The notes under the pieces were generated by a model that was given only the letters and a program-made list of their open reading frames with translations, searched no databases and had not been told where the DNA came from. The translations under genes were made by a program, and so were the position numbers. 64,000 bases of DNA, from contig CDROCS010000294.1 of assembly GCA_977020255.1 (NCBI GenBank), forward strand, positions 1 through 64,000, given 5' to 3'. This DNA comes from Obrimoposthia wandeli (lineage: Eukaryota). Numbering within the stretch: position 1 is the stretch's first letter; each line of letters begins with the position of its first letter. This document shows positions 1 to 47,347 of this stretch, piece after piece.

Positions 1-830
1 AAAGATATGCAGCTACACACGCTTATTTTAATAATAAAATTGATTTCTATTATCATAAAGGATTGATGCAAATGGAACAGTTATATCGGATGATGATTGA
101 AAGAGATTGCCAGTTAAACAAAGAGATCGTGAGAACAAAGTTAGCATTAGCTATTACGAATCCAGACATGGCGGTAACCATTATTACCCTTGGATGAAGG
201 AGTGATTTGCTAAAACCATGGAGAAGTATTTGTATACTTACAGAATTAATAGTAGAGGTACAGTTGAGAAAAACAAATCGATGTACAGGTGAATTGGCAG
301 TAACGTATAATTTAAAAGATCTTTTGTTGAACCAATCACGAAATGTTACTTCAAAGACACCCCAACTAAAGAAATCAGCTGCTCTAATATAATGGCACCT
401 GAATATCAGATGACGAATAATCTATGGATAACGTTACCTGATCGGGAAGCCAACGAAAACCCCAGCGACTATTGATAAGAATGACGAATCTTAAGGTAAA
501 TGAAATTCCAAGCGGTGGAAAATATGGAGAACGCAAGTTGTACAATGAAAAAAGATTTAAAAGCGGCGTGGAACGAAATAATGTTTCCAGTAAGAAGAGC
601 CAGAGTACTTTGCGGAGATGGTACATCGAGCATTACCGCCAGGAGCGAGATATGCGAATTTCGATATGTTATTATCGCCAAGTCATTTCAGGAAGCAGCA
701 TGAACACTTAGAAAGATGTGGGGGAAATTCCTTGTCTTAGGACAACTATTTTCGGGTATCATAGGTATTTATGTTATAATTAAATTTGTGCAGGTAATTC
801 TTAGGTGTTGTCTACGTATAGTTTATACAG
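1..830 (+). pseudogene. C-terminal part of chuvirus-like envelope glycoprotein, frameshifted
   Basis: Manual translation across frames gives RSFVEPITKCYFKDTPTKEISCSNIMAPEYQMTNNLWITLP, KDLKAAWNEIMFPVRRARVL and KMWGKFLVLGQLFSGIIGIY. These match element B's FVEPITR...KEINCSNIMAPHY...IWITLP, EDIDKLRKEILFPQIRSRIL and KIWGKFLIFGQAFSGLVGIY. Confidence 0.88.
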
Positions 831-1259
831 GATAACCGGAATCACCTGGCAACTTATAATTGGATGTTTTTCCATTTTAGCAAAATATCTAATGCACCAT
901 CACGAGAACGAGTTGCGAGCCCTCAAAAGAAGGAACAACACCAAACGAGAACCATGATGAGAGAACCAAGAAACTATCGAGACGACAACGACGACGATAA
1001 TGATAGTCCAGAAGATATGCAAAAGATACCAGGAAAACCAAAGATTCCGTTACCAGACAAGGAAAAGTGGCGTTAAACCTATACCCAGCAGAAGGAATTG
1101 AAGGAAGAGAAGGAAAAATTCAAGAGAGGCATCTTAATGATAAGATGGCTAAAGTGAGAAACGCTACAGTGAAATTCCACAAGCAGAGGAAAAAGACAAA
1201 AGATAATTCCAGAAGAATTCTGAAGTCTAGGATATCAAACGAGAATCCCAATGCTCCTA

Positions 1260-1545
1260 CAAGTAGCAGTAACATTGAACGGAAGAGAGAATATCTTGCC
1301 GAAGTTGATACCGGATCTGCAGTATCATAGTACTGAGTAAAGAAATATCTTGTCATCAAAAGAATTAAGAGAGAAGTATGTCCTAGAAAACAGACATTTG
1401 TTAACGTGAACGGTACAGATGTAGTGTCGGAAGGAACGCTGAAATGTTCATTGAATATCGATGGAAGAGTATTACAGTTAAATGCTAGAATATTCACAGA
1501 TTGCGGTAGTCCAGTCATGCCATTGGGATGGACGTAATACGAATG
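1260..1545 (+). pseudogene. Retropepsin-like aspartic protease domain no. 1, frameshifted
   Basis: EYLAEVDTGSAVS (DTG at 1307-1315), followed in another frame by FVNVNGTDVVSEGTLKCSLNIDGRVLQLNARIFTDCGSPVMPLGW (flap and C-terminal strands). Confidence 0.75.
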
Positions 1546-1844
1546 TTTGAAGGAATAATTATACTACCAAACAACAAGAGTTATAAGAATGATGACAGTT
1601 CAGTGAGAGAGAGATAAAAATGTTGAGAGGACCTATAGTCGAAAAGGAAAAATGCACTACGTTCCGTATGGGAAGTTCGTACCCAGACAAAAACAGGAAG
1701 CGCTAGCAAAGTCGATACTTCACTACAAAATGTAAATTTCGGACCACAAGATACGACGAGGAGAAAAATAACATATGTAAATCTGTCAGAAAGGGATCCC
1801 ATGAGATTCGAGAGAGAAGAAAGAGGGCAGAAATATATTAGAAC

Positions 1845-2035
1845 AGTACTATTCAAAAGGAATGGCACGTAAATGGCAAGATCAGGTTTAGAAATGCTAA
1901 ACGCACGACAAGTAGTTATGGTCAGGAGATAGTAGTACGATGCGTATGGTGTAGAGTAAAGTTTAGAGAATGGGAACAGAATGAAAACCCAATGAGACGT
2001 CATAAAGAGATGCACCAAATTGTCCATTTCTTTTG
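1845..2035 (+). pseudogene. BIR (baculovirus IAP repeat) domain, frameshifted
   Basis: MARSGL... then VVRCVWCRVKFREWEQNENPMRRHKE/APNCPFL: exact C-x2-C-x16-H-x6-C spacing after one frameshift. Confidence 0.8.
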
Positions 2036-2224
2036 AAACTGAAAACGTCAAACGTACCAGAAATCAAACGGGAAAAGCACCCGATTTCGATTACAGTGAT
2101 GGGATTCCAAAGGAGAATCAGCTCTAATAACAGGTATTAGAGTAATAACGAATAGTCGAATTGAAGATATATTCGAAGTTATGCGAGAAGTGAACGAATG
2201 TGACGAACAGTATCAGTAATGCTT

Positions 2225-2395
2225 TCGAAGATCCAAGACTTAAAAATTGGCAAAAAGGGACTTTTTATAAAAAGGATAGTAAAGACGTAATTAAATGCCA
2301 CAAGTGTAAAAAGAACGAATTATCGACAGATACACTCTGGAGCTACCTAAGAAAATTTTGTACACATCATGAATTTTTGCGAATTTTGTACTTCT
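2225..2395 (+). pseudogene. Second, degenerate BIR-like domain
   Basis: RLKNWQKGTFYKKDSKDVIKCHKC resembles the BIR motif GFYY-x-G-x2-D-x-V-x-C-x2-C. The His/Cys half cannot be recovered cleanly. Confidence 0.45.
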
Positions 2396-2684
2396 AAAAA
2401 ACAAAATAAAGCAAAAAGAACAGAAAACCGAATGTATAATCGAATACCAAATCACACGAAAAGAGATTTTGGCTCAACAAGACACACCGGTAGTGTCATT
2501 CGTGAGAGGGTTATATATCCAAAAGAAGCAGAAAGAATCAGAGAGAATTGGTAGAATTAAAAATAAAAACTACGCTTGCGAAACGGATACGGATCGATTT
2601 TTGAATACTGCGAGATAAAGATGACAGTACAATTGAAACAAAGAAAAAGAGTACATAAATGAACTAGAATACGTACTAGAAGAT

Positions 2685-2815
2685 CCGGAATGCGCAGTTT
2701 GCATGGTTAACAAAATAGAAGTTGCCTTTCTACCATGCGGACATGTAGAACATGTCGGAGATGTGCGAATGAAATGGTATCATGTCCAATTTGTCGAAGA
2801 ATAATAGATCGACAA
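2685..2815 (+). pseudogene. IAP-type C3HC4 RING finger, one frameshift
   Basis: ECAVCMVNKIEVAFLPCGHV + RTCRRCANEMVSCPICRRII, typical of IAP C-terminal RINGs. Confidence 0.85.
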
Positions 2816-2919
2816 GTGAGAAACATTAGATTTCACTATCCAAATATAGGAAGTGGACTGACAGAGTGTAATAATTCGATAAATACAATATACCATATGG
2901 GAAACATAAATGGGGCACA

Positions 2920-5900
2920 GCGACCAGCAGCTATCATTAGAGTAAATAATTTAAGAGTAAAAGCCTTAATCGATACAGGTGCTGTAGCTTCAATAGTAAG
3001 TGAATACTGTTTGACAGAGGAACAGAAACGAACAATGGCAGAACCAGATGAATTTTGGTATCGGTCAATGGAGACCCTGTAAAAGTGACGGGAATATTAC
3101 CATGTACATTTATAATTGGCCGTACTACGATTACCTTACCAGTTAGAATCATGAAGAATGTCCTGAACCTACAATTTTAGGAATGGATGTATTATCACAA
3201 CTCAAAGGGATAAGTATTGATTTACAAGATCCAAGATTGAAGGATAGCACATCAAACAGACAAATAAACCAAATTGATGTAATTATAGAATCCCTATAAA
3301 AATCGGTATTAAAGATCACAATTTCTCATTCAAGGTCACACATTATCAGAAGATAAAGGACCAGTTGTGTTCGAACCATCACGAGATTTCATAGAGAAAT
3401 ACGAATTACCAGTTGTGAGTACAGTATGCCTGATCGAAAACCATAAAATACCAGTTAGACTGATGAATACAACCAACAATGACATTCTATTATACAGAGG
3501 AATGAGGTTGGGAAAGATAGCACAAATGGAGAATCCCACAGTGTGTGCTATGAAACTCGATAAAGACACGAATGATTACGAAGAAATAGTAATCCAATCA
3601 GAAAGACTGACAACTAGAGAAAAACAATTACTTGACCTAATACATAAATTTCCGAAAGTAATTGCAAAAAATCCATATGACATAGGAGAAACACCTGTCA
3701 TAAAACATACAATACCACTGACAGAAGACAAAGTAGTCAGAAGAAGACCATATCGAGTACCATTACAATTACAAGATGAAGTAAAAAGTCAGATCGAAGA
3801 TATGTCTAAAACAGGAGTAATTAGACCGAGTGTTCGGCAGTGTCAGCAGCTGTGGTGTGGGTAAAAAAGAAGCAGCGGAAAATGGGGTTCTGTATAGATG
3901 TCAGAGAACTGAACAAGATCACAAGAAAGATGTGTATCCACTACCTAGAATCGAAGAGATGCTCGATAAATTGGGTAATTCAGATTATTTTACAACATTA
4001 GATTTGCAGAGTGGATACTGGCAAATCGAGATAGAGAAAGAGGATAAACACAAAACAGCCTTTTCCTGCGGAGATGGATTATACGAATGCGAAAAGATGC
4101 CATTCGGACTGACAGGAGCTCCAGCAACATTTCAGCGTTGCATGAATTTTGTACTCGCATCGTGTGCAAACACGATGGTTTATATCGATGACATAATAAT
4201 ATTTTCGAAAACGTTCGAAGAACATTTAAAAATCTTGAAGTTGTATTTAAAAGACTGGAAAATGCTAAATTAAAAGTTAAACCTACAAAATGCGTATGGG
4301 CTAAAGAGCGAGTAACATTTTTAGGACATATAGTATCGAAAGGGCATTCGACCTGATCCGGCAAAAGATCGAGAAGTAAAAGCGCATTTAGCGCCAAAGA
4401 CTGTTAAGGAGATACAGAGTTTTTAGGTCTGGCGAATTATTATAGACGATTTGTTGAACATTTTTCAGATATAGCAACACCATTGAGAAAGTTGACGAGA
4501 AAAAGATGAGAAGTTCATATGGGGAGAAGAAGCCCAACAAGCGTTCGAGCATTTAAAGAAAGATTGATAAAAGCACCGATATTAGCGTTTCCAGATATAA
4601 ACCGACAATTCATACTCATGACAGATGCAAGTAACTATGCTGTAGGAGCAGTATTGGGACAAGAGGATGACGAAGGAAGAGAACACGTCATTGCGTATGC
4701 GAGTAGAGGATTAAACAGAGCCGAAAGAGGATACTCTGTTATCGAAAAGGAATGTCTAGCCATAGTGTATTCATGTAGAGCAAGTACAGACACTATTTGC
4801 TAGGACAAAAAGTATTCACTGTATACAGATCACAAACCACTACAGTTCTTATATAAACATAGAGATGAGATGAGTAGATTAAACAGATGGTTTCTAAAAT
4901 TGGCCGAATTCGATCTAGAAATCCGTTATAGAACCGGAAAGTCGAACGGCAACGCAGATTGTTTGTCGAGATTGACAAATGTAGACGAAAGAAACATAAT
5001 TCCAGAAGAAGATGAAACCAATGACCAAAAGGAGAAGCAAATCTACTGACGATTTTGCTAAAGACGAGGTAAAAATAGACAAAGAGATCATCAAAGAACA
5101 GAAAGAAGATGAAAGAACTGAGTCTAATCAAAGAATTGTTGGTGAAAGGAGATCTAAACGATGAAATGACGAAGAAATACTCGATAAAAGAAGGAATCTT
5201 GTATATTGTCAATAATGTCGGAAAGATAGTAGTAGTAATTCCGAAGTCATTGAAAACAGCAGTGATGATCCAGTATCACGACGGAACACTAGGAGGACAT
5301 CTGTCAGGGCGAAAGACAATAGCCAGAATCAAAGAAAGTACCATTGGGATGGTATGGAAGACGACATAAAACAATGAATTGTAAACAATGTAAAGTGTGT
5401 TTAACCAGAAAAGACACCGGAACTCGTACTAAAGTTCCGTTGAAACCAATACCAGTTCCCTTGGCACCAATGGAATTCACAGCGATGGATATATTGGGAC
5501 CATTGAGAGAATCAAGTAAAGGAAACAAGTATGTCATAGTATTTACGGATTACATGACGAGATGGGTAGAAGCATATCCCATGCAGAACCAGAAAGCTGA
5601 AACAATAGCGCAAATCTTGGTGGAAGAGATAATATTTCGATACAGGTGCCTAGAAAGTTGTTAACGGATCAAAGGAAAAGAACTTCACTGGAGAAGTCAT
5701 AAAAGCAGTATCGAAGATATTCGGAATTATGAAGTTACAAACTTCACCATATCACCACAGACAGATGGTCTGGTAGAAAGGTTTAATAAAACTTTATGTA
5801 TGATGGTACAATCCTATTGCTCAGACAAGCAAGAGAGGATTGGGATAAATATTTACCTTCATGTTTATATGCTTACAGGAATTCAGTTCGAGGCGACAGG

Positions 5901-6205
5901 TCACACACCATTCTATCTGATGTATCTCAGACAGAACAATATGCCGATGGATCTGGAGTGGACCGAGCCAACATCTCAGTACCTAGAAACTGAACAATAC
6001 ATTGTCGTCATGAAGGAAAGATTACAAGATGCTTGGACCAAAGCCGGATTGAAGTTGAAATTCAATCAAAGAAGGTTACAAGGAACAATACGACAAAAAG
6101 CAAAACCACATGAATTTAGAGTCGGAGATCAAGTGATGATATTTTATCAGTCATCGAACCAGGTCTATCGTTTAAACTTCATAGACCATACAAAGGACCA
6201 TACAA
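2920..6205 (+). pseudogene. pol: Ty3/gypsy pol (protease no. 2, RT, RNase H, integrase), many frameshifts
   Basis: VKALIDTGAVAS; YPLPRIEEMLDKL, TLDLQSGYWQIE, MPFGLTGAPATFQR, YIDDII; LMTDASNYAVGAVL, YSVIEKECLAIV; GGHLSGRKT...CKQCKVC; MDILGPL, FTDYMTRWVEAYP; GPY motif near 6195. Confidence 0.95.
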
Positions 6206-6206
6206 G

Positions 6207-7634
6207 GTGATCCAGACAACTTCAACAAATTTGAAAGTAATCAACGAAGAGAATCGGAACAAGGAACCGATGATTGTACATGCAAATCGATGCAAATTAG
6301 TACCAAATAAAGATAATGCGTCACGATATGAGTTAAGATCACAGAAATCGAAATCGAATACCAATACCATTAAACTTACACGAATGGTAAGTGATCGGAA
6401 CTACATAAACATGATGACGAGTGGTAGCAAGGAAAAACCAGCGAGAATTGGTATGCTCAGAATGAAGTACCAAGAGGAAAAGGAAGTAATCCGACACATC
6501 GCACCACAAGAGATATTAGAAGAAGACGAAGAGATAATAGTCGTTTTCGAAAAAACACAACCAACAGATGTAGCTAAAGAAGTCATTGTGAAAGATGCAC
6601 TGACAAACGAATTTCTGTGCGAACTTAGAGTGTCATATTACGACGGAAATACATTAGTCGCATCACTTTATCAAAATTCCAATGTGTTTACGACTGAGAA
6701 AGTGATAATCGAAATCACATTGACACCAAACATAGTTGCATGGCAGAACTATGACAGTACTGAAGCAGGACTAGCCAGTCAGGAAGAGAAGGAACCGGCC
6801 GGTGGTCACATACTGCATGGTACACCAACAGGACTCAAACAAGAATACCACGATGTAATAATGGTATTACGTAATTCACATGGGAAAAGAGATATCATGA
6901 GAGTCCATTTAATCGACGCTGACACTGAAAAGATAATTTGTCAGATGGACACTAAATACTTTGATGGAAAGACAATTGTATGTTGTATACCAGAATCTCA
7001 CCGGTTAGAGACAGATCAAACGGAAGTATCTGTAAGGTTGAGCGTAATAGAAGGATTCCATTCGCCAACCCATCCGGAAGTGACTAACAATAAAATCATC
7101 AAAGCAACGGCAGAGTTACGCATTGACAGCGGATACCGGAAGTGGGAAGCTAAAAATAAAAAGCCACAAAGAATCAATATGATCCGAGAACAAGTGACCA
7201 ACTCAATCCAGCCAAAATATCATGCTGAAATAGTATCATCCGCGCCAAGTGTAATCACATCGATAAACGACGAAATTATAATTTTACTAAAAAATCGATG
7301 GCCGTCATCAACTGAGATACGAGTAAACTTAATTAATTATGCGAAAACACCGATATCTAAGCTGAATGTTACCTATTTTGATGGATTGTCCATCATGGGT
7401 AAATTGGAAACAATTGTCATGTGCTACGGAGCACAGTTCCAAGTTGAGATACTTAAAGATAGTGTAATACCGTATCCGATTCACAAATACGAAGGGGAAA
7501 TCAATCCAATTATTCTAACACCTTCATTAATTTCAGTCAGACAGACATACCGGAATACCCTTCGAGCGAGTCTAGTGAAGACAGCGAACCGGAAAGTAAC
7601 GATACAGAATCAACAGAATCCGAAGATAACATAA
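6207..7634 (+). CDS. Integrase C-terminus fused to three ~80-aa repeats (TIG/IPT-like Ig fold, inferred)
   Basis: HANRCK...RYELRS integrase tail, then three repeats with conserved I-x4-P, [DE][EV]I[IM][VI][VLF] and Y[YF]DG at near-constant spacing (about 6486-6722, 6807-7049, 7227-7457). An open acidic frame from about 7540 links to the next ORF by one frameshift. Confidence 0.7.
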   Translation: MIQTTSTNLKVINEENRNKEPMIVHANRCKLVPNKDNASRYELRSQKSKSNTNTIKLTRMVSDRNYINMMTSGSKEKPARIGMLRMKYQEEKEVIRHIAPQEILEEDEEIIVVFEKTQPTDVAKEVIVKDALTNEFLCELRVSYYDGNTLVASLYQNSNVFTTEKVIIEITLTPNIVAWQNYDSTEAGLASQEEKEPAGGHILHGTPTGLKQEYHDVIMVLRNSHGKRDIMRVHLIDADTEKIICQMDTKYFDGKTIVCCIPESHRLETDQTEVSVRLSVIEGFHSPTHPEVTNNKIIKATAELRIDSGYRKWEAKNKKPQRINMIREQVTNSIQPKYHAEIVSSAPSVITSINDEIIILLKNRWPSSTEIRVNLINYAKTPISKLNVTYFDGLSIMGKLETIVMCYGAQFQVEILKDSVIPYPIHKYEGEINPIILTPSLISVRQTYRNTLRASLVKTANRKVTIQNQQNPKIT

Positions 7635-7654
7635 TAGAGCGATTCGGAAGAACC

Positions 7655-9637
7655 ATGGAGGTTGAATTCGCTAAAGAAAGCAGAAAAAGACAAAACATAG
7701 AATTCGTGAAACAGAATATACAAGAAAGACGAATTAAATCTGCAGAAGAGACCGAGTCGGAAGAAGACTCAACAAAGGAACAGACATCAGAGACAAAGAT
7801 GAATACCTCTCCAGCAATACGAATGCTGAGAGGAAAGAAACTGGCAAAACTAACCAACATCGACGAACAGATAGAGAAGAGATTAGAAAGATTAAAACTT
7901 GAAGAGTCAGAATTAATGCCACAAATGAGTGAGATCATTCCAGGTAAGTTGTACCTCGGAAATGTGGAGGATGCAACAGATGAAAAGAAACTGTTGGAAC
8001 AAGGGATAACATACGTGATCAACGTTACAATGAATCACAAATCACAATATCAGACGATCAGAGCTATGACATTAAGAGTAAAAGACTCAATGGACGCTAA
8101 TCTTCTCGAATGGTTTGTAGAAACAAACGAAATACTTCACAGAGAACTCCGGAACAAAGGAAAAGTGTTGGTACATTGTCAGAAAGGAATTTCTCGATCA
8201 GCAACCCTAGTATTAGCATATCTAATAAAGACTAGACGAATGCAGGTACTAGAAGCGTTAAAATACCTACAGGAGAGAAGAAGTATTGCAAACCCAAATC
8301 TTAATTTTTTGGGGCAGTTGGCAAATTACCAACTTCTGTTGCAAGAACAAAGACGGATGGACGACATTCCTGAGGACCCAAAGGAAAAGAATTTCCTTCA
8401 AGCATTATCACTGACTGGGTTATTTTTAGCCGGAGTCGACAAAATTACACAAATAATGCCAAAAGTATTTTTATGTCATCCAGGAGATATAGATACTGCT
8501 GGATTAAAGTTCCATAGTATCAACCGAGTAATCAACATTGTTGAAATCGGAAACGAGATAATTAGTCTGTGTCAAAATACTGAAAATGACACCACTCGAT
8601 ACATACATGCTTCCAATCGAGAGATAAACGATGCACAACAACATCTGACGAAATTGACTCAAACCATCCAAGCTGAAGTCACAGAAGGAAACGGCGTTCT
8701 GATATATCAGAAAAAAGGTACAATGTTAGCGCCTACCATAGGTGTATCCTTGTTGGTAGAGTACCATGGTCATACGCCAGAAGAAGCGATGGTCTACATC
8801 AAACAGAATAGACCAAATACGGAATTCAAACCGTTACTCGTTCGAGAAATAGAGAAATACACCGAAAAGAGGAAGCAACAACGAGAAACAAATGAAGCTA
8901 CAACAACAGTGCCCAGCTTTCAATACCAAAGATTGCTAGCGATAGGCTTGTTAAGTTGTTTAATGCCGATAACGGGAGCACAAGAAATAGACTCCAACCC
9001 CGGAAATAGTTCCTGGTTCAACGAAATCCAAAATTACACCATACAGTACCATACACCGGCACTGATGATGCTATTAGTATTGTTAGGACTAATTGATGTG
9101 TGGATCATCCGAAAATGTATTCGATCTATGAGAACCGACAGTAAAAGATTTCAGTTTGTAAAGATGAAAAGACCAAATGGACCAACAAACAAAGTGCTTG
9201 TGTATCTAGACGAAAGGATCGAAGACAACATAGTAAATGAAGCGATATTTTACCCACAAAACAGAATACTGAATCAATTCCGAATAGATTACGAAGCTGA
9301 CCGACAGCACACACTTGACCAAATATCAACAACATTCGCCGGATGCAAGCGGAGAAAACGAGTTGTAAAGGAAATACAAAAAGATGCTGATACAAAAGGA
9401 CCAACGTATATATTCGATGGCGATGTCATCAAAACACGTGAGTATGGAAGTAAGAGAGTGATAATTGAAACAATGGAAGGACATAAAACATGCTTGTCCG
9501 CCAAAAATGGATTCGGAAAGTTGACGATACAAGGTAAACCGGTACAGTTGATTATCGGAAGAGATGGAATCGAGGAGATGTCAAAACAACGACAGACACG
9601 ATCAGAAACAGATATCTCTCAAACGATTGATAATTAA
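7655..9637 (+). CDS. Polyprotein segment: active dual-specificity phosphatase + pseudophosphatase + signal-like and TM segments
   Basis: DSP1 about 7919-8338 with VLVHCQKGISRSATLVLAYL and NPNLNFLGQL. DSP2 about 8441-8860 keeps the fold motifs, but its P-loop is VLIYQKKGTMLA. Hydrophobic stretches at about 8930-8983 and 9056-9109. Confidence 0.9.
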   Translation: MEVEFAKESRKRQNIEFVKQNIQERRIKSAEETESEEDSTKEQTSETKMNTSPAIRMLRGKKLAKLTNIDEQIEKRLERLKLEESELMPQMSEIIPGKLYLGNVEDATDEKKLLEQGITYVINVTMNHKSQYQTIRAMTLRVKDSMDANLLEWFVETNEILHRELRNKGKVLVHCQKGISRSATLVLAYLIKTRRMQVLEALKYLQERRSIANPNLNFLGQLANYQLLLQEQRRMDDIPEDPKEKNFLQALSLTGLFLAGVDKITQIMPKVFLCHPGDIDTAGLKFHSINRVINIVEIGNEIISLCQNTENDTTRYIHASNREINDAQQHLTKLTQTIQAEVTEGNGVLIYQKKGTMLAPTIGVSLLVEYHGHTPEEAMVYIKQNRPNTEFKPLLVREIEKYTEKRKQQRETNEATTTVPSFQYQRLLAIGLLSCLMPITGAQEIDSNPGNSSWFNEIQNYTIQYHTPALMMLLVLLGLIDVWIIRKCIRSMRTDSKRFQFVKMKRPNGPTNKVLVYLDERIEDNIVNEAIFYPQNRILNQFRIDYEADRQHTLDQISTTFAGCKRRKRVVKEIQKDADTKGPTYIFDGDVIKTREYGSKRVIIETMEGHKTCLSAKNGFGKLTIQGKPVQLIIGRDGIEEMSKQRQTRSETDISQTIDN

Positions 9638-11079
9638 AACCCTTTGCAAAAGGTCAGTCAAGGCCCTGTGCACCGTTGCACAAGGATTGATCTATGGAGT
9701 AGTAATTGGATTGGTACTGCAAGCCATGCCAACCAGTAAAGCCGAATTGATGACACTATCCGAATATAATTTACATTTGAGAAATCTAGACAACACCCTA
9801 GAAATAATCAAGACATCCCACAGTAGAGCCGTGATGATCATGTGTGTAAAAGGATGTCCAGGACAGAATGTGTATAGTCCCAGCGACCGAAATGATAACA
9901 CTTAATGGACATTATGGAGTTAGCGTTGTCACATGTGAAGACTACATATTTGGACAAACTAAAATAGTGCTTCTCAGTGACACGTCCAACCAAAGTGCAC
10001 ACAAATTTAAAATATTAACCATCAAGAGTAAAGGAATACCAGCAGTACGTTATGGTATTCTAGAATTGGTTAATCCAATACTCGCACTGATCATTGGATT
10101 TATAATATTAATATTACTCATCTTGTTTTGTTGTTCAAAGATAGAGTCGAGATCAAAAAAGAAACGCCATGATCTCGCAAGACGAACAGGTCAAATGAAC
10201 TTACAAAAATTCAACACAATAATACCAAGACCACCATTCCTAGATGAACCAGCACCAGAGTACCAGCCAACGATATACGAACACATCGAGGAAAGACCGT
10301 ACTATATGAGTAATTTGACTTGTTTCATTGAAGTTCCTGAGTTTAGGAATCGAACGATCATAGGAATCATGCTGATCGTACAAATCACCACTACCAAGGC
10401 TAGTTATGAGATCATGATCAGTAAATGGAGACAAGACGTAATACGGGCAATATACATAGAAATTCCCCTACTAAAAACAAATCACGTAGTAGACATTCAT
10501 CTACAGACGTCAGCAACTGACAATATCGATCAGAAATTGTATGTCATCCGACAGGTCAGAATAAAAATCGACCAACATACACCCGTTTACAAATTAATAT
10601 TATTGCATCATGAAAGAGTGTTATACCTACGGATAACAATATCAAAGAGGAAGCGGATTATCCAAAGTATCCGAACAAAGTCATTAATATTACCTAGAGA
10701 TGAGCGCATCTGGAAAATTGTCGACAGGATTATGATCACAGGTAGACGACGTAAAGCCGTATGGAATTCCGTTAGGATATTTTTCAGATTGCTAGAAACT
10801 GACAGCGTGACAGTAATGTGTCCCAACCCAGATGGCGTAATCAGATTCGAAATCCAAAGCCAAATGTTAGTACCACATTTTAACACAGAATGTCTGTGTA
10901 ATCGAATTGCAAATAATTCTACAGAGACCGCAACCGTATTCATGATAATAATAGGTGATATATTCTACATAACACTAAGATACCAGAACCGTCGATTTCG
11001 CAGATACGGTATAAGTATCAAACCCAGGAAAATCATTCCCAGAAGACCAATCCTAATAGTCAAAAGAAGGCAAAGGTAA
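9564..11079 (+). CDS. Polyprotein segment(s) with signal-peptide-like and transmembrane segments, product unknown (two frameshifted ORFs)
   Basis: GLIYGVVIGLVLQAMPTSKA; TM PILALIIGFIILILLILFCC followed by a basic stop-transfer stretch; TIIGIMLIVQITTTKA. ORFs 9564-9905 and 9868-11079 overlap. Confidence 0.6.
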
Positions 11080-11662
11080 TCGAAAGTAAACGACATTCCA
11101 AGAAACCGACAGTGATCAAAACAAAGACAGAAGCGAAAGAAAAAGAGTCAATCCCAGAAACCAAAGTACAATTATTAAGAGGACAAGAGTGAGGGAACGA
11201 TCCCTAGATCCCAAACATCATTTCCAATCCAAAATAATAATACCTGTTCCATCAGAAACAAAACACCCAAATCCCCGAATTTTTAGAAAATCGGACATAA
11301 TACATGGAAACCGATCAAAACCCATGGAAATATCATTCGAACCGACAAACGACAAAATGAAGTATGATTATAAAACATCAGACAGCGGAATAACAGCGGT
11401 CAATGCCCTAGTGGAATGGCCGTAGTGTCAACAGCGGTGGTTCTACTTACAATCGTGTGCGTAAAAGGCAGTCAAGTATGCCCAGGAATACGACGAAAAT
11501 GCGAAGGATTGCGATGCTGTGACACACCCATCATGGAGGAAGTGGAATTGCGACCCTTACCTCCACCTCCCATCAAGATATGATGAGTCAGAGGAGGTTG
11601 TAGATAAATCAGTGTGTGAAATATGTAGAAATATCTAGAAGCGATTGTACAAATAGTAGAAG

Positions 11663-11671
11663 TATATAAAA
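11663..11671 (+). promoter_or_regulatory. TATA-like box upstream of RING ORF1
   Basis: TATATAAAA starts 44 bp upstream of the ATG at 11707 in a short AT-rich intergenic gap. Confidence 0.4.
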
Positions 11672-11706
11672 CTCATGTAGAAATTAATCATCATCATGTA
11701 TTTAGA

Positions 11707-12006
11707 ATGGCCGAAGAATGCCCAATATGTTTAGAAGATCTAACCGAACGAAGAACAAGACCCGAAACCTGCAACCATTTACACCACGAGGAATGTTTAT
11801 CGACATGGATCAGAACTTATGGACAGTTCGGACACCCAACATACCCTCGTTGCCCTATATGCAGAAGACAATTCGCAAGATTCGTCATGTTAGAACCCAA
11901 CCAAAGGGATGTATATGTACAGGTGGTATTCTGCTGGAAGAATTTCGGAGAGTGTTGGTGTTATTACTGTTTGTCAGATCGACAAAATCAGACCACTTTT
12001 GTGTAA
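11707..12006 (+). CDS. RING-H2 protein 1 (99 aa) with C-terminal Cys cluster
   Basis: CPIC-x13-CNHLHHEEC-x3-W...CPICR, then CWKNFGECWCYYC. Confidence 0.88.
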   Translation: MAEECPICLEDLTERRTRPETCNHLHHEECLSTWIRTYGQFGHPTYPRCPICRRQFARFVMLEPNQRDVYVQVVFCWKNFGECWCYYCLSDRQNQTTFV

Positions 12007-12066
12007 AGATCACACAAACACCAGTCCTCAATCGAGCCCAAATTCAACATCAACCCTCCCACAGTA

Positions 12067-12369
12067 ATGTCTGGAGAATGTTCCATCTGCTACGAGAGCA
12101 TCGTGGACTTCTACACCAAGCCCAACAACTGCGACCACCTTTTCCACGTCGAATGCCTCGAGACGTGGATCCCCATCAAACAGCAACAACCCCTCGACTT
12201 TCCAACCTGCCCGATGTGCAGAGCGACCTTCTCAGTACACTACGTGTACAACCAAGACAGCCTCCAAGCAGTGGTACCCATCGTACACTGCTGGAAAACC
12301 ATCTGCGATTGCTGGTGCTCGTTCTGCGTGGAGGAGCGAAGCACAGGCCAGCCCAATCCCCAGCAATAA
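12067..12369 (+). CDS. RING-H2 protein 2 (100 aa) with C-terminal Cys cluster
   Basis: CSIC-x13-CDHLFHVEC-x3-W...CPMCR, then CWKTICDCWCSFC. Confidence 0.9.
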   Translation: MSGECSICYESIVDFYTKPNNCDHLFHVECLETWIPIKQQQPLDFPTCPMCRATFSVHYVYNQDSLQAVVPIVHCWKTICDCWCSFCVEERSTGQPNPQQ

Positions 12370-12703
12370 TCGAAGGTAACTTTCTGACTTGAACGTGACA
12401 TCATGAACTACCCTGTGTATCGCATACCGCGATAAATTAGCTACCATAATTGTAATCATAATTATATAATCTTGTGAACTGTAAATTGACCATTACCATT
12501 TTTATGTATGATGTTTAACTGAAATTGTAATTATTATACTGAATTTCTAAAAAATACAATTTTTATGCTTAGTGTGAATGCGTAAACATGCCTAAAATCG
12601 AAACAAAACTCGGTAGGATTAGATAACTAAGAATTCATTTTGAAATAAAATTTAAATTAACGATGAGAACGGTGAACCCCAAATTAAAAGGAGTCATTTT
12701 CTC

Positions 12704-13240
12704 ATGCAGATGTTGTGCTCCGTATGCATGGAGAAGATTTGGGCGGTATCAGCATCCCCTGTCGGCTGCCGTCACAAATTTCACGAGGAGTGCCTCTATT
12801 TGTGGACCAAGGTTCGAACCTCCGGACAAATCACCTGTCCACTGTGCCGGACACCCTTCGCCAAATGGACACTCCAGAGCCGGGGAAGACACAAAGGCAC
12901 CCGATCGCCTGCCAGCTGCATTGGTGGCATCCATTGCCGATGCTACGTGTGTCTCGCACGCCGGCGCGACACACAACTGGGCGTCCGCGAGAGATGGCGG
13001 TCTAGTCGAGACTGCCACTCGTGGTTCCAGGCCAGACGGCACTGGATTGAAAGCCATAACATGAACAGGCAGCACTTCGACCTGTTCATCGACAGCCCGC
13101 ATTTGACCCGGAGCCAGCAACTCCATTTGTACAACGGGGACAGTCCGTCCTTTCCCGACCTTCCCCTGGAACAGGTTCTACGCTACCTGGCCAGTCGGAA
13201 CCAGCCAACAATTACAATTGATTTGACATACGACAATTAA
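12704..13240 (+). CDS. RING-H2 protein 3 (178 aa) with Cys cluster and C-terminal SIM-like motif
   Basis: CSVC-x13-CRHKFHEEC-x3-W...CPLCR, CIGGIHCRCYVC, ends TITIDLTYDN. Confidence 0.88.
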   Translation: MQMLCSVCMEKIWAVSASPVGCRHKFHEECLYLWTKVRTSGQITCPLCRTPFAKWTLQSRGRHKGTRSPASCIGGIHCRCYVCLARRRDTQLGVRERWRSSRDCHSWFQARRHWIESHNMNRQHFDLFIDSPHLTRSQQLHLYNGDSPSFPDLPLEQVLRYLASRNQPTITIDLTYDN

Positions 13241-14011
13241 TCCTTTCCTCCCTTCTTTCCTTCCTGACCTTGGTTATCGTGTAATTTTGTGTGTAAATTT
13301 TTAGTTGTGCATGGTTAATAGTGTATACTTTGAGACTTGCTCCAAATTATATATTATGTTTCCCACTGGAAAACCGAGATTTTGAAAAAATTGTTTTTGG
13401 GCATGTTTGTTGAGGTTGAATGATTGATTTTGTAGGGATGAACCTAAAATCAACAGCCAAAGGCTTATTAAGTAAAATCGATACGTTCCGGGGACGTAAC
13501 TTTTTTGGAACCCCCGAGGTATGTTAAGGTTGAGAATTAAGAAAATTAAATATTTTAGTTGATTAAATACTAAAATAAAAAATCCTTGAAAGCAAGGTCG
13601 AAAATTGAATTAAAATATTAATTTAAGTTTTAGAAGTAAAATTAGTGAAATTTAGGGTAAATTAGGAGGACCACGAAGGTCGTGTATTATGCGAAAATGT
13701 ATAAAAGTTTAAAGTTAATTAACCAAAAGGAACAAAATAAGAATTAATTAGAAGAAAAACGGTTAATTACAACCGTCGCTCAAGGATCCCCAAGGTAAGC
13801 ACATTTTCGTGCAATAAACTAAATTTTGTTTGCAGCTGTCAATTGATTGACATTGCAATATTCTCTCCGGGTTCGCTGAAGAAAGACTCAACGCAGCCGT
13901 CAACTGATTGACGTCCAGTGCCAATATATAAAGGCAGGTTTTCCAGCTAGAATCACAAATACGGAATCGCCAGAAGAAACAAAGACAGGAAGCAACAATC
14001 CCCTCGTCAGA

Positions 14012-14591
14012 CGAACCGTTGATTGAAGAGTCGAACCGTTGATTGAAGAGTCGAACCGTTGATTGAAGAGTCGAACCGTTGATTGAAGAGTCGAACCGTT
14101 GATTGAAGAGTCGAACCGTTGATTTAAGAGTCGAACCGTTGATTGAAGAGTCGAACCGTTGATTTAAGAGTCGAACCGTTGATTGAAGAGTCGAACCGTT
14201 GATTGAAGAGTCGAACCGTTGATTTAAGAGTCGAACCGTTGATTGAAGAGTCGAACCGTTGATTGAAGAGTCGAACCGTTGATTGAAGAGTCGAACCGTT
14301 GATTGAAGAGTCGAACCGTTGATTGAAGAGTCGAACCGTTGATTGAAGAGTCGAACCGTTGATTGAAGAGTCGAACCGTTGATTGAAGAGTCGAACCGTT
14401 GATTGAAGAGTCGAACCGTTGATTGAAGAGTCGAACCGTTGATTGAAGAGTCGAACCGTTGATTGAAGAGTCGAACCGTTGATTGAAGAGTCGAACCGTT
14501 GATTGAAGAGTCGAACCGTTGATTGAAGAGTCGAACCGTTGATTGAAGAGTCGAACCGTTGATTGAAGAGTCGAACCGTTGATTGAAGAGA
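14012..14591. repeat. 20-bp minisatellite (CGAACCGTTGATTGAAGAGT) x29 inside LTR A
   Basis: Exact 20-bp period. Three units carry a G>T change (at 14121, 14161, 14221). Confidence 0.97.
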
Positions 14592-14702
14592 CGAACAGTC
14601 GATTTCGAAGACGATTCCGCCAGGCTCGCAAACACCACATACGGACCCTACACCGGACGTCCCACGAGTTGCTGTAACTGGTAAGAACACAGACTAGGTT
14701 CA

Positions 14703-15140
14703 TTCATTGCCCCTAGTAGGCAATTAGGATATATTCATTACCCCTAGTTGGTAATTCTATATTTTCTTAATCATACACAAATTCATTGCCCCTAGCTGGT
14801 AATTAGGATCACTGTCTCTTTACCACAATCATTGCCCCTAGTTGGTAATTAGGATCGGACCTTTATTCATTGTCCCCAGCGACAATTAGGAAACCTACCA
14901 GACGTTTTTTCCCGTAAGATTCATTGTCCCTAGCTGACAATTAGGTTCATTCATTGCCCCTAGTTGGTAATTCGGATAAATATTCATTGTCCCTAGTAGA
15001 CAATTCGGTAAGACTCATTGTCCACTAGCTGACAATTCGGTTCGTTCATTGTCCGTAGTTGACAATTAGGAGTAAGTTTTTATTGTCATCTTGACAATTA
15101 GGTTTTTAGGAGATCCCTTGTCTACAGTAGACAATTTGGG
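14703..15140 (+). repeat. Array of 12 short inverted-repeat (hairpin) units with variable linkers inside LTR A
   Basis: Consensus TTCATTGYCCCTAGYWGRYAATTMGG. 6-bp stems with 5-8 nt loops; linkers about 4-29 nt. Confidence 0.9.
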
Positions 15141-29564: not shown

Positions 29565-29760
29565 TCATTTAAACGGTACAATAGTTGTTCTAGTATAAGA
29601 TTTCAGTCTCTTCGAGGTACTAAAGAATCTTTCGGAATCGCACAATGTAACGTGAATAGTACAGCGAATAAGAAGTAAATTGAAAGTATTAGGAAATATA
29701 ATCTTGTTACATCGCTTGTTAGTGGCCAAGTTGTTATTCCAGTACAAATCAATACTGTTC
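29565..29760 (-). pseudogene. hAT C-terminal dimerisation domain remnant
   Basis: HVTLCDSERFFSTSKRLKSYTRTT matches the PVT-x2-SERSFS-x-LKRLK-x-Y-x-R-x-T motif. Confidence 0.6.
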
Positions 29761-32232
29761 CGTGCTGATTGGTTGATAGTAAGATACTGTTAAATATATC
29801 TGTCTTCCGCCTTTGTGTATAATATGTATTTATTTAAATCAAAAACTAGTATGTAGATATATAGAAGTATGTACGTTTATTTTTATGAGTGCTAACATAT
29901 AACGAATATAGACGGTAAACAATTTAGAGTCAATATCTCGGCTCTTCGTTACCCAATTTTGTTGGTCTCGTTAATTTGGAGAATATTCTTAGGTTTGTTC
30001 CAGATTCCAATAACAAAAAGATTGCGAAAATGTTGTATTTCTAGTAGAGATATCCTTTTATTAATCAGTATCAAAAATGCTGATATTCAAAATCAAATTT
30101 TGTTTGACAAAAATTGTAGTTATTCATCAATTTAGGTAAAAATGAGAAGTTAATTTGTGTTTCTGATTATTGTCTTTATAACTGCAAACTGTAATGCACA
30201 AGGAAGAAAAACAGTGGCTTTAACAATTATATCAAATTTCTTTATGCTAACCAGTTTTTTATTCAATTTTCTGTTGTAAGTAAATTTGCAGGTTCACATA
30301 CGTAAATCGGAATCACTACACAGATATAGGCAGTAAAATTACAGGTGTGTGTGGCGCACTTAAAAATGGGCAGGAAGGAAAATCAATAGAGTAAGCAGTA
30401 ATTCCTTCTGTTTTATCTCCTACTTAATGGGCAATTTTACCATCGCGAAGCAGGAGATAACATCCAGCCGTCGCGGTCTTAAAAATCGTACTTTGATGAA
30501 ATATGTTATAAATGTCTCCGAATAAATATGATAAAAATGTTATTAAGGTCTCGATCAAATTCTTCCAAAATAGTTGCAAAATTTCCAAAAATGCAACTGC
30601 TCAAAAATTGATTACTTTTGCCACTGCGATATTTCCCGCGATAGAAATGCTAAGCCTCAGGTATTTCTATTTTTAGCATTTTATCAATTCTTAATCTATT
30701 TTTAGACGAACGGATTTTCTGTCTGATAATTGAAAACACTGAAAAAGGCTCTGACAACTTTTATTATTGTGAAAATTTAAATAGTTAGAATTTCTGGGGA
30801 TATCTGTCCAACAGCCGCTTCATACAGCAACCACACAAAACGTCACAAGATCCCGACACAGCAATAAATAATATTTCAATTCCCAACAAATAGAGATACG
30901 GCGGCGGTGATGCCCTGTTATTTTTTTTATGAAAAATAATATGAAAGCACTTGTTTGAGATTTATATTTGTATGTTTATGAGAAAGAAAAAACTCAACTG
31001 ACATCGAAATATCATATCCAGGTTTAGTCTTACTATGTCTAGGCATATAACTGTGAGTAGGGATATTTTCGTTGAATAACATACACGGGTTCCTTTTATA
31101 TTTTAGCCAATTTAAAAGAAATCTTATGAACTTGGTCTTGTTTCATCCAACAATGTTGTAAATTTGAACCTCTTTAATATATTTAAACAGTTGTATTTAG
31201 TATATATTTTTAATGTTTTCATAATGCATCAATTAGAATTTCTAGCATCATTTCAGTGACAGCTTTTATATGGATGTAGAGTTTGAAAAGCATGCATGAA
31301 GTATGTATGTATTACTTTATTAAATATTAACAGAAGATTGCTAAGTAACCATTTTAAGCATAAAATAAATTAAAAGATCTTAAATAAAACAACAAAATAT
31401 TTAAAAAAAATTAAGTATTACAAATTTTATATATTTTCTTTCTTTTTATACCATTTTTCATACTATATTTGAATAGATCTTACGATTTCAAGATTTCAAG
31501 TAAAACTGTGAAACTTCCGCGTATCATAAATAGGATTTTAAATATGTTTACATTTATAGTTGTATAAATAGAATAAATATATATCTTTTCATGTTTCTAT
31601 ATTTCACTATTCAATTGAGATTATCAGATTTCACAAAATGTTTTTACTTTTGTTTATTACTGGCTATTAGCAGTAGTTTTAATATACTTAGCAAATTACT
31701 ATAATAGAAAAATCTATTAACAATAGTGCTAAAATCTTATAAATCTATGATTTATAAGTCAAAATTGCTACAGTTTCTTTTATCCATCGGTAAATTGTTG
31801 TAAAGATTCGGAGAATAATTTTCAGATATTCCATCACACTTTATTTGAGTATTTCTTGATGAACTCCATTTCTTGTCGTTAATTTAACGACTAATGACAC
31901 GTGACATCTAAATCTTTTAGTTTTTTTATAATTATTTAATAAGGAGTGCATTGAAAAAAATCAGATTTTCTTTAAGTTTCATATTTAAAAAGTTATTATC
32001 ATTTCGACACGCTTACATTAATGAATAAATTAGAATAACACAGTGTCATTCGACTAATCTTGAATCACAATGATTTTTTTCGAATTGACCTTACGACTGT
32101 ACGATTTATGATTAGGCTATAAAAAGTCAATGTTTATTAGCAAAATTGGTGAGTTTGGTTGTATAGTTTTAAGTGACGAAGTGTATTAGGATTCTTATGT
32201 AAAGTGGAGAGGATTTATGTGAAGTATGATAG

Positions 32233-33865: not shown

Positions 33866-33954
33866 ATAGAAATGATATGTGATGGAGTGGTCAACAATAA
33901 AGATGAGAAATAATAAAAAGGATATTTGTTAATAAATAGAATAATAAGTAATAA

Positions 33955-34858
33955 TGTTATATTTTGTTAATTTCCAATATATTCAGTTTTTCCAAAAATA
34001 ATCTGCAACTAATTTCTTGTATAATTGAATAGTTTTCTATAAATCTGAACGAATCTGAACAATTTGTTTTTGAAAATATATTTGACGGTATATAAATGGA
34101 TAAAAATTTTCAGTGATAATAATCAAAATGGGATATATTTTTAAGAAAAATGAAATTGAATTATGGCAATACAAATCTGTCAGAGTGATAATTTTTAATA
34201 GCCAATAGAGATAAAATTTTTCCGTGTGTCCATTATAATGACGACGATTGCTATAAATAGCAATCGTCCAAATGTCAACTGGGCAAGGCTGATTCGCATA
34301 ATGTCAGAGCAGAAAGAAACGAAATCCATGCGAGATCGACGATTGCTATAAATAGCAATCGTCTAAACACAGTTTTCGGTATTTTTTTAATCTTGGGGTT
34401 TCAATCAATGGGTCCATGCAATCTTGTCATTAAGGGAATTTAGTTGCCATCAGGAGGGACTGCGAGTCGGCAGAGTGCGACCGATGGAGCACTGGAGGGA
34501 GCCAAGCGCACACAAACTCCCGGCACGCACGCACACACACATAGGATGATGCCGGCCGACCGGGATGACGTACACAGAACTGCGGACTGCGGAACCGGCC
34601 GAGAAAGGGCAAACCGCCGCCGCATCTGCTGCAAAGCTGGGCGAAAACCCCTGGCGGCCAAAACCACCCTTTATTTTCATCACTAAAAAAAAACAGCCGC
34701 CCTCCCGATGAGCCTGGCAAGGCGAAACGGGCTAACAACCCGTCGGAGGCTGAGATTTGATAAACCTCCCTAATTGTGGGTACTTTAGATAATTTTAAAG
34801 AATGTCAATTTAAATTGACTGTAATTTATTTTAATTAATTTTAATTAAAGACCCAACA
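33955..34858 (-). repeat. 3' LTR of element B
   Basis: Direct repeat of 47348-48251. Confidence 0.97.
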
Positions 34859-35129: not shown

Positions 35130-36305
35130 TTAAATGTTGTCCTCAGAATCAGAGGAGGTGAGATCTATAACTTCATATAGGTCATTACTGGCAATGTAGG
35201 GGAGAGAGACAGTCAGTCCACATTCTTTTATTAGCTCTTGCTCTTTATGGAGGAAAATTTTTCGGGTCCATTGCGTGTCTATGAGGCTAGAGTGGGTATT
35301 CTTTTGTATTTCTTTATTGAAATACCACGAAACTATTCGAGCAAGTCCGGCTTGTTCTCTACGGTTCATTTCCATTTGAATAGTTTGTGTTGCCCCTAGA
35401 TCAACCGTGTGCGAAAAATCGTTTTTTTGTAATCCTAAAACTTTGAGATCGTTGGATATTCCCGTCCCTACGAAAATATTGTCTCTTAGTAAGGATTGGA
35501 CACGTTCTAACACTTCGACAGAATCAGGTTGGTTTCTTAACTTCCGTTCATTAAGGCCCGTTATTCTTGTCACATAATTCCTGATTCTGTCTCTGCTATT
35601 GCATTTCGTATCCAACACGATCTGTCCGCTTCTATTCATTATTGTAATGCTAGCTAGGTGGGTTTGTTTGTTCATTTTTACTACCATTTCACAATCGACA
35701 AAAAATATTTGAGGATTGTTGGGTATGATATTCAAATGGCAGACTTGAACGGGATTAGGTCGCACATTTTGCTCCATGAAAAATATGTTATTTCCACCCG
35801 AAAAACGAATCATCAAATCGGGAGTTATTTGATGTCTCATTAATCTGTAAGAGTGGTTTTGCAGGAGAAGGATAGAAAAATGTTTGCTTTTCCTGTGTTT
35901 TAAAAATCCACGGCCTTTTGCTACGTGAATCTCAATGTCCGTGCATATTGGTAAGAAATTCATCAACTCAAACAGTCTTTTTTCTGTTGGCTTTTTACTA
36001 TTTATGTTGAGAATTATACTTTGTCTTGGGGTGTCTCTTAACTTAATGCTATTTGGAAGCTGGGTCTGATTGTCAAAAAGCTTTATTCCGTAATGGTTAT
36101 GGAAATACCTTGTTCCAAACTGTCTTATTTTTCCATAAAGGAACTTAGCCATTTTCGCCATTTCTGGACGTTGTTCTGCTAATTGGACCGACTTCTCTCT
36201 CTTTCCCGCGGCACCACCTGCCAGTTCAAATGAGGATTCGTGCTTGTGGGTTCCATCTGTAGGGTATACAGATATAGTAAAAAAATGTTGATCTTTTACA
36301 TGCAA
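35130..36305 (-). CDS. DEDDh 3'-5' exonuclease (ISG20/REX4-like) with unknown N-terminal half and C-terminal SIM-like motif
   Basis: ExoI FFVDCEMV, ExoII FVGTGISNDLKVL, ExoIII THSSLID; NYVTRITGL; C-terminus EVIDLTSSDSED. Confidence 0.9.
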   Translation of the reverse strand: MHVKDQHFFTISVYPTDGTHKHESSFELAGGAAGKREKSVQLAEQRPEMAKMAKFLYGKIRQFGTRYFHNHYGIKLFDNQTQLPNSIKLRDTPRQSIILNINSKKPTEKRLFELMNFLPICTDIEIHVAKGRGFLKHRKSKHFSILLLQNHSYRLMRHQITPDLMIRFSGGNNIFFMEQNVRPNPVQVCHLNIIPNNPQIFFVDCEMVVKMNKQTHLASITIMNRSGQIVLDTKCNSRDRIRNYVTRITGLNERKLRNQPDSVEVLERVQSLLRDNIFVGTGISNDLKVLGLQKNDFSHTVDLGATQTIQMEMNRREQAGLARIVSWYFNKEIQKNTHSSLIDTQWTRKIFLHKEQELIKECGLTVSLPYIASNDLYEVIDLTSSDSEDNI

Positions 36306-36683
36306 ATATAAAAATTGTCAACTGTCTATCAAATGAAATGTTCCTGTTAGTTATTTTGTCTCTTTTTGTTAATCAAAAATCTGTAAATCGTTTTTGTCTT
36401 TATGTAACAAGTTTAACAAACAAGGTATATAAATAAGATATGATTTTTTCATTTTTCAATATATATTCTTATTACTGGTGTTACCAATATCAATATATAC
36501 ATATCTATACTGGTATATTCATTTTTTACCTATTCTTAATTTTATTATTACTATTTCAACTAAAGTTAATGAATATTAATACCCATTCATAAACGCATTT
36601 CCTCTCCAAAAACATGCCAAAAGCCCAAACTCATTCTCAATTTTCTTTTATTTTATATTTTATTTTACTCACTGGGGATTTTA

Positions 36684-36992
36684 CTAATTTTCACACCCGG
36701 AATCATCGCTTTCTCCCGGTTGAAATCCCATCAAACGATTAATTACTGATCTCAATGATACGAGAGAGTTTAATGCTTCTCTGAGTCGTCGTACTAATAT
36801 TTCTTGGGTTGATTGGCTATATTCTAATCTTTCAATTGCAACGTCAAAAGCATTATTCATTCGTTCACATTCCATTTCCTTGTCTTTTAAATACGATCTC
36901 AGATTTATATTCTCTATTAACAATTTATTTTCCCATTTTTTCTGTCTCTTATATCTTCTTCTATTATTCTGTACTAATTTTGAATTTCTCAT
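36684..36992 (-). CDS. Small basic/coiled-coil protein (bZIP-like), 102 aa
   Basis: NNRRRYKRQKK basic stretch followed by heptads (LLIENINLRSYL...LEYSQSTQEILVRRLREALNSL); clean ORF between AT-rich gaps. Confidence 0.5.
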   Translation of the reverse strand: MRNSKLVQNNRRRYKRQKKWENKLLIENINLRSYLKDKEMECERMNNAFDVAIERLEYSQSTQEILVRRLREALNSLVSLRSVINRLMGFQPGESDDSGCEN

Positions 36993-37063
36993 TTTCTAAA
37001 TTGTTAAAAAGTTTTTAAGTCTTATTTTAAAAAAAAAAAATAAATAAATAAATCTTTTGATTT

Positions 37064-37864: not shown

Positions 37865-38309
37865 TATTTTATGTTTTGATATATATTTCGCTGTTGTTTC
37901 TAATATTGATGCTAGGTATATGTGAGTTTCTATAGTTCTTTGATAAAGTGTAATGTTTTGTGTATTTGATTTTATTTTAATTTCATATTGTGTTTCATCT
38001 CTTAAGAATGGTATTGTATATTTTCGTGATTTTATTCCTATTATTGTTATGTCCTCTATATCTAATTCTAATGAGGGCTTTATCTAAGTCGTCTATTTTT
38101 AGTTGAAATTCCCATTTTATCATTATTTTATGTTTTGATATATATTTCGCTGTTGTTTCTAATATTGATGCTAGGTATATGTGAGTTTCTATAGTTCTTT
38201 GATAAAGTGTAATGTTTTGTGTATTTGATTTTATTTTAATTTCATATTGTGTTTCATCTCTTAAGAATGGTATTGTATATTTTCGTGATTTTATTCCTAT
38301 TATTGTTAT
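37792..38309. repeat. 259-bp tandem duplication (2 copies) disrupting the polyprotein frame
   Basis: The sequence starting GTCCTCTATATCTAATTC occurs at 37792 and 38051; 259 is not a multiple of 3. Confidence 0.92.
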
Positions 38310-42500: not shown

Positions 42501-42509
42501 TGTATTTTT

Positions 42510-47329: not shown

Positions 47330-47346
47330 CTAAGTCGAGCTCACCA
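47330..47346 (-). promoter_or_regulatory. Primer-binding site, tRNA-Trp-like (tentative)
   Basis: TGGTGAGCTCGACTTAG starts 1 nt inside the 5' LTR boundary; resembles the canonical Trp PBS TGGTGACCCCGACGTG with 4 mismatches. Confidence 0.7.
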
Positions 47347-47347
47347 A

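Follow-up and report, generated by a model that had tools for sequence, protein, structure and literature searches.

Tandem active-type and dead-type phosphatase domains carried by a Burro-like Ty3/gypsy retrotransposon of Obrimoposthia wandeli

The first 64,000 nucleotides of contig CDROCS010000294.1 of Obrimoposthia wandeli (assembly GCA_977020255.1; this whole stretch, read on the forward strand, is called the window) contain a retroelement in which a preliminary description had pointed to two neighbouring dual-specificity phosphatase (DSP) domains. The locus raises the question of whether both domains are still phosphatases, whether they belong to the element family or to this copy only, and what they might do there.

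The phosphatase frame and its two domains

The pair lies in an open reading frame at 7463-9637 (+), which runs for 724 codons without a stop and encodes an acidic linker, the first domain (D1), the second (D2), hydrophobic segments and a C-terminal tail; its first ATG is at 7655. Pfam DSPc matches this frame in two stretches (E 2e-41), and the motifs quoted earlier are real, all of them sitting in this one frame. Behind D2, a signal-peptide-like hydrophobic stretch (8933-8980, +), below the hydropathy threshold applied, was picked by eye, and a transmembrane-like segment (9050-9124, +) was found by a Kyte-Doolittle scan with a peak of 2.27. Among 1425 six-frame pieces of the 64-kb window, no other DSP-like piece was detected.

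D1 (7916-8335, +) matches DSPc alone with E 2.6e-35. It contains, within the DSPc domain, both the HCx5R loop (HCQKGISRS, 8174-8200) and the general-acid Asp of active DSPs. The catalytic set comprises Asp 8084-8086, Cys 8177-8179 and Arg 8195-8197, and from these three intact residues D1 is predicted to be a working Cys-based phosphatase. At 8294-8320 it ends in an MKP-like tail, PNLNFLGQL, of the pattern PNxNFxGQL; such a C-terminal tail is a marker of MKPs.

D2 (8435-8860, +) matches DSPc alone with E 1.1e-06, its score of 29 bits being below the curated cut-off of 33.5, and it has no Pfam DSPn match. The motifs ITQIMPKVFL (8444-8473), VINI (8528-8539) and EEAMVYIKQNRP (8780-8815) are present. 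On a profile made from 120 natural DSPs, D2 scored 34.2 bits against 7.0 for the best of 1000 shuffles and aligned, with few gaps, over almost the entire domain; its best PDB matches were DSP/PTP-fold phosphatases. At the HCxxGxSRS position, which aligns without gaps, D2 reads YQKKGTMLA (8705-8731) and has no Cys and no Arg, while HCx5R[ST] is present in 119 of the 120 natural DSPs of the profile. The general-acid Asp of D1 aligns to Asn in D2 (8615-8617), in a loop where the alignment is less sure, and D2 apparently lacks this residue as well. The tandem of an active-type and a dead-type DSP thus holds as described, the second domain being a full-length homologue without the catalytic Cys and Arg. 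The two domains share 21% amino-acid identity, and blastn finds no match between their DNA sequences. A single-sequence fold of D1-D2 (pLDDT 39.8) was too low for use.

The carrier element and its reading frames

Element 1, at the left end of the window, has the domain order gB-type env, BIR, RING, protease, RT, RNase H and integrase, and behind the integrase three Ig-like repeats, D1-D2, hydrophobic segments and RINGs. The order of protease, RT, RNase H and integrase, with RNase H and integrase domains of the gypsy type, assigns it to Ty3/gypsy. No LTR-like repeat was found for 1-13800; the 5' end of the element is beyond the left end of the window, and therefore gag, 5' cargo and LTRs are outside the view.

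The 3' part of env, a gB/chuvirus-type fusion glycoprotein, is located at 3-924 (+) and broken into several frames. It was matched by Pfam Monjiviricetes_fusion (E 1.7e-07, or 6.5e-08 with stops read as X) and also by tblastn with the env of element 2, a related element of the same window. It is followed by a possible first retropepsin-like segment (1268-1555, +), which has a DTG motif only, with stops and no Pfam match, by a BIR (IAP repeat) fragment (1842-2033, +; Pfam BIR E 3.6e-06), and by an IAP-type C3HC4 RING over two frames (2637-2842, +; zf-C3HC4_3 E 4.5e-06 and 0.013). A dUTPase-like domain ahead of the RT and a further BIR near 2194-2391 had no Pfam match and are not counted among the parts. 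Pol, composed of aspartic protease, RT, RNase H and integrase (2885-6341, +), contains many frame breaks; it was recognised by Pfam RVP, RVT_1, RT_RNaseH, Integrase_H2C2 and rve, and by tblastn with the intact pol of element 2.

The integrase C-terminus (Integrase_p58_C, E 0.003) opens a 504-codon frame at 6120-7634 (+), which continues into the three repeats of about 95 aa (6489-7520), with 22-24% mutual identity and a YxDG motif. The model of these repeats (mean pLDDT 51.5) reached a best Z of 5.2 with plexin and of 4.1-4.4 with EBF, NFAT, NF-kB and BCAP DBB, which points weakly to an IPT/TIG-like beta fold. Foldseek of this model against viral structures returned nothing at E under 0.001, and the repeat profile against PDB sequences nothing under E 0.1. 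The repeats might possibly serve as a decoy of Rel-type dimerisation domains, an idea that Z values of 4.1-4.4 do not support.

Behind the phosphatase frame we found further cargo frames at 9552-9905, 9850-11079 and 11090-11425 (+), of no known family, the first two with TM-like segments. Two RING-H2-type frames (11629-12369, +; zf-RING_2 E 5.4e-10 and 1.2e-08) are within the high-depth part of the contig mapping given below. A third RING frame (12656-13240, +; zf-RING_2 E 1.2e-07) has a depth of about a quarter of the core, and so may belong to part of the family or to the element end. The second and third RING frames (12007-13240) showed GC3 of 0.75 and 0.68 against about 0.35 elsewhere in element 1, which suggests that these frames were captured more recently or lie in another compartment, for instance an LTR.

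The preliminary description had placed the pair inside a retroelement polyprotein. The membership of the element stands; the polyprotein was not directly seen and is only inferred, because the DSP frame of this copy is separated from pol by frame breaks, which lie between integrase and D1 at about 5,840-6,140 and 7,460-7,630. In element 2, the env end, pol and a post-integrase tail occupy one frame of 1600 codons. One contig of the marine metagenome X5 spans 7257-7640 with one gap relative to the window, and its length is compatible with a continuous frame; this junction-spanning contig is single, has a depth of 4.0 and may hold an error. Translation of D1-D2 as part of a polyprotein is likely, and the ATG at 7655 keeps a separate initiation of the DSP frame possible.

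The longest open runs of element 1 were 107 codons in 1-3000 and 183 in 3001-6100, and 724 and 504 codons in 6101-9700. The breaks are concentrated in 1-6100, as against the long cargo frames of 6100-12400, and all 12 indel differences listed (162 more exist) are at 897-6068. Poorer assembly near the contig end, a chimeric copy or selection that keeps the cargo of a defective copy open could be the reason for the breaks in the 5' half. At the listed places within the RT (3849-3885), contig depth falls to between a few hundred and a few thousand, so here this copy, or the way it was assembled, differs strongly from the other copies.

Element 2 (35130-45632, -) is a related gag-env-pol gypsy whose gB-type env extends over three frames and whose pol has about 65% DNA identity with that of element 1. 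It contains a 259-nt tandem duplication at 37781-38298 and, downstream, a frame for an RNase_T (DEDD) exonuclease (35130-36317). Element 2 is flanked by two copies of a 300-nt repeat (33953-34252 and 47346-47645; 99% identical), which could be part of its LTRs. We also detected a long array of a 20-nt unit at 13849-14724, scattered repeats of 31-47 nt at 14683-15071, and a hAT transposase fragment at 29568-29789 (-). An F-BAR (FCH) exon-like piece at 57582-57839 (+) was the sole host-gene match when 47 of the 52 long frames outside both elements were scanned.

Copies of the pair in sequencing runs and the age of the D2 loss

Contigs of four of the five sequencing runs that cover 6200-9600 were mapped onto 1-13500 of the window. 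Runs X1, X2 and X3 are from one sample, possibly the source of the window, with library type unrecorded; X5 is from another study. X1 gave 362,417 contigs on this region, X2 327,748 and X3 349,646, and about 4% of the X1 contig records fall on these 13.5 kb. The summed contig depth of X1 was 394,000-471,000 in the three D1-D2 bins and 410,000-526,000 over 3601-6300. In X1-X3 the depth of D1-D2 equals that of pol and drops after 12,600. At each of four listed single places from 7892 to 8585, 102-111 X1 contigs were counted. Contig depth is not copy number, and lone divergent X1 contigs have a depth of 4-7; as a rough estimate, the copies of element 1 may be of the order of a thousand or more.

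The 15 joints listed (308 more exist) have depths of 67 at most and all leave the DSPs in place, and among the 24 loose ends listed none is within 6100-10100. X5 covers 25 of 30 bins, with 8101-9000 included and 7651-8100 excluded. The GC3 of D1 and D2 is 0.35-0.36 against 0.28-0.40 for pol, that is, the same codon composition. A host DUSP retrogene inserted solely at this locus, which the preliminary description had considered as a counter-explanation, would agree with the homology to host DUSPs and with nothing further. Against it are the presence of the pair in X5 and its pol-like composition, and the flat, very high depth at the level of pol over D1-D2 in X1-X3, together with the lack of a strong joint skipping the pair, excludes a unique retrogene; we consider such an origin next to impossible. 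Present throughout the family and long established there, D1-D2 is cargo of a Burro-like Ty3/gypsy retrotransposon with env and a high copy number.

The same contigs bear on the time of the D2 loss. Decay in this copy only, with D2 active in the rest of the family, the other counter-explanation named in the preliminary description, would be consistent with the damage that this copy shows elsewhere, with many breaks in 1-6100. Between the D2 loop and the Cys and Arg codons no fewer than 5 of 6 bases would have to change, or 8 of 12, yet 70% of the X1 contigs are at least 95% alike. With at least 563 variable places in 13,500 in X1 (about 4%), the chance of a loop loss in this copy alone was P about 7e-7, independent changes assumed; a hand calculation with 10% of the places variable gave about 5e-5. 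Among the 40 listed of 727 differences, three are inside D1-D2 (8314, 8546 and 8585), and they miss both loops. D2 is also just 21% identical to D1, so that a decay limited to this copy is very unlikely, and we give it very little credence. The D2 loop was read in one copy, the present one; very probably, judged from these indirect comparisons, the loss of D2 catalysis is old and common to the copies.

Relatives and possible roles of the pair

The best PDB matches of D1 were DUSP10 (E 5e-24), then DUSP4, 1, 2 and 16, and D1 resembles DUSP10/MKP5 in its Asp-Cys-Arg set, a VINVT strand and the PNLNFxGQL tail. The tail is common to 10 of 259 callable DSP domains (22 were uncalled), four of these ten being labelled MKP or DUSP10. 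In typical MKPs (DUSP1/2/4/5/6/7/8/9/10/16) an N-terminal rhodanese/KIM module serves MAPK docking, according to the accessible text of PMC12428424. A rhodanese (CDC25-homology)/KIM module gave no Pfam match in the 724-aa frame or the preceding frame. D1 is about 40% identical to everything, and an anemone DUSP14 reached 112 bits against 114 for MKP rows. For the tree, 281 DSP domains were collected and 77 kept after pruning at 65% identity; in this quick tree of 79 rows, with few MKPs, D1 joined no well-supported group, and D2 was placed apart from D1 with long-branch rows, on an end branch of 1.73 that makes the placement unreliable. Of the earlier wording, MKP-type, the catalytic-domain sequence, the tail and the nearest structures are upheld, the rhodanese/KIM module is missing and the tree leaves D1 unplaced. 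By its sequence, D1 is an MKP-like catalytic domain at best and not a typical MKP: it differs from DUSP10/MKP5 in the absent N-terminal CDC25-homology/KIM region, in the dead DSP and hydrophobic segments behind it, and in the lack of MKP grouping in the tree.

The protein search with D1 alone gave 311 matches, with a maximum identity of 44% among the 120 listed. Further protein searches gave 176 matches among proteins of near length, with no close or LTR-linked relative among the 120 listed, and seven among longer proteins, namely four Slingshot, two plant PHS1-type and one DUSP14-like. D2 against 1.84 billion representatives had seven matches at 23-29% identity, all ordinary active DSPs. No LTR-element domain was found in the 14 long protein matches scanned with Pfam. 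IMG/VR gave no match, and a phage collection gave one Mollyvirus DSP at 30% identity. Two candidates were rejected: the protein P0028, the one of the 14 with an RT, which looks like the LINE type, was taken as a gene-model chimera, and the metagenome locus L001, the only one there, was put down to chance, its gene being of bacterial appearance.

The class of the element is known already. In the accessible text of PMC6431247, the planarian giant Ty3/gypsy element Burro/GYPSM1 has an env related to mononegavirus fusion proteins before the protease, together with numerous additional domains that hint at apoptosis and ubiquitination, and MATH, BCL2, Ubi/SUMO, ankyrin, Smc and dUTPase-like domains are named. 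Element 1 is like Burro in the env before the protease, the BIR and RING-type cargo and the very many copies. BIR cargo and an env before the protease were both found, with gag outside the window, and the presence of BIR, RING and gB-type env in the same element, which the preliminary description leaves unmentioned, links element 1 to Burro-like elements and makes the cargo less surprising. The differences are in the visible post-integrase cargo, which here comprises Ig-like repeats, the DSP and pseudo-DSP, TM segments and RING-H2 frames. The visible 12.6 kb of this broken copy, which lack the part upstream of env, showed no MATH, BCL2 or ankyrin cargo and neither the length of more than 30 kb nor the single ORF of about 5000 aa of Burro. 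The original Burro paper, Grohme 2018, is said to have a DSP domain in its domain figure, which we hold to be about as probable as the opposite.

GAG-ENV-POL errantiviruses with gB-type env are reported from nematodes, bryozoans and flatworms in the accessible part of PMC13524379, and element 1 is like them in having a gB-type env upstream of pol in a Ty3/gypsy element. The word phosphatase has no occurrence in the accessible text of PMC6431247 on Burro or in that of the main text of PMC13524379, where no post-integrase cargo was found either, and the accessible parts of PMC6338049, PMC11410931 and PMC10175614 contain nothing on phosphatase cargo. Our literature search, which covered titles and abstract openings and had the original Burro paper outside it, found no DSP/pseudo-DSP in an LTR element. 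Phosphatase cargo may be known already; for the tandem with a pseudo-domain this search found no report.

According to published proposals, giant gypsy elements loaded with cargo may interfere with apoptosis and ubiquitination in the host, and the accessible text of the review asks for experimental confirmation of this (PMC6431247). The reading that we prefer, at somewhat less than even confidence, is that a MAPK-directed D1 would act with the BIR-RING module against cell death, with D2 as docking or regulatory partner. D1-D2 would most likely be translated behind the integrase within one long polyprotein, or else start at ATG 7655; it would be cytosolic, ahead of the hydrophobic anchor, and released by the protease of the element. 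As the D1 catalytic domain resembles MAPK phosphatases, its likeliest targets would be stress kinases of the p38/JNK type, and D1 and BIR-RING together would keep cells that replicate the element from dying. Baculovirus PTP2 is like D1 in being a phosphatase of an invertebrate virus with an MKP-type C-terminal consensus and acts on apoptosis, an effect that needs its catalytic Cys; it is unlike D1-D2 in being a single domain, from a DNA virus, and pro-apoptotic (accessible text of PMC5923475). Since PTP2 promotes apoptosis, the direction of any effect of D1 is uncertain.

The MAPK direction of D1 has a competitor, in which the module would act on non-MAPK targets, for example proteins of its own particle or STAT-type immune factors, with D2 as scaffold. 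For such action, poxvirus VH1 is the model. The missing docking module and the unsettled subfamily placement of D1 in the tree are in keeping with this, as is the neighbourhood of D1-D2, with env-like and membrane proteins of a particle that may be infectious; MKPs rank first among solved structures, however, and D1 carries the MKP-type tail. We regard such targets as unlikely, if worth retaining.

For D2, the preferred reading supposes an old duplicate that would have lost catalysis and kept its fold. By analogy, it would most plausibly be a docking or regulatory partner replacing the absent rhodanese/KIM domain: in Cdc14 and in receptor PTPs, too, a catalytic PTP-fold domain is joined to an inactive one. 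In Cdc14 the inactive domain is first, receptor PTPs consist of classical PTPs, and neither is encoded by an element; D1-D2 shares the catalytic and inactive tandem with both and departs from the order of Cdc14 in having the active domain first.

D1 may instead be the functional cargo and D2 a jobless relic of an old tandem duplication, left open for polyprotein read-through to the membrane proteins, which we find somewhat improbable though a serious alternative. All catalytic positions of D2 are lost, no protein matches it at more than 29% identity, its tree branch is long and its score is under the Pfam cut-off, as would suit a relic, and the open frame through D2 is to be expected in any case if the proteins behind it have to be translated. 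A relic is harder to reconcile with the near-full-domain alignment with few gaps (34 against 7 bits) despite about 79% divergence from D1; a segment that did no more than fill space should have grown shorter, and D2 appears fixed in the element family.

A wider proposal joins these parts into a two-domain signalling suppressor, composed of an MKP-derived phosphatase and a dead duplicate kept by selection as a docking module, beside an IAP-like BIR-RING and possible NF-kB/IPT-like decoys. We think this unlikely on the present sequence comparisons. If true, it would mean a full toolkit in the style of DNA viruses, directed against both stress and immune signalling of the host, in an LTR element, with a DSP-pseudoDSP pair without precedent among retroelements. 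D1 is a phosphatase for which a standard assay exists, which makes meddling of the element with its host directly testable. If D2 is under selection, a pseudoenzyme would have arisen inside a mobile element, and this would help explain the abundance of the element in the genome.
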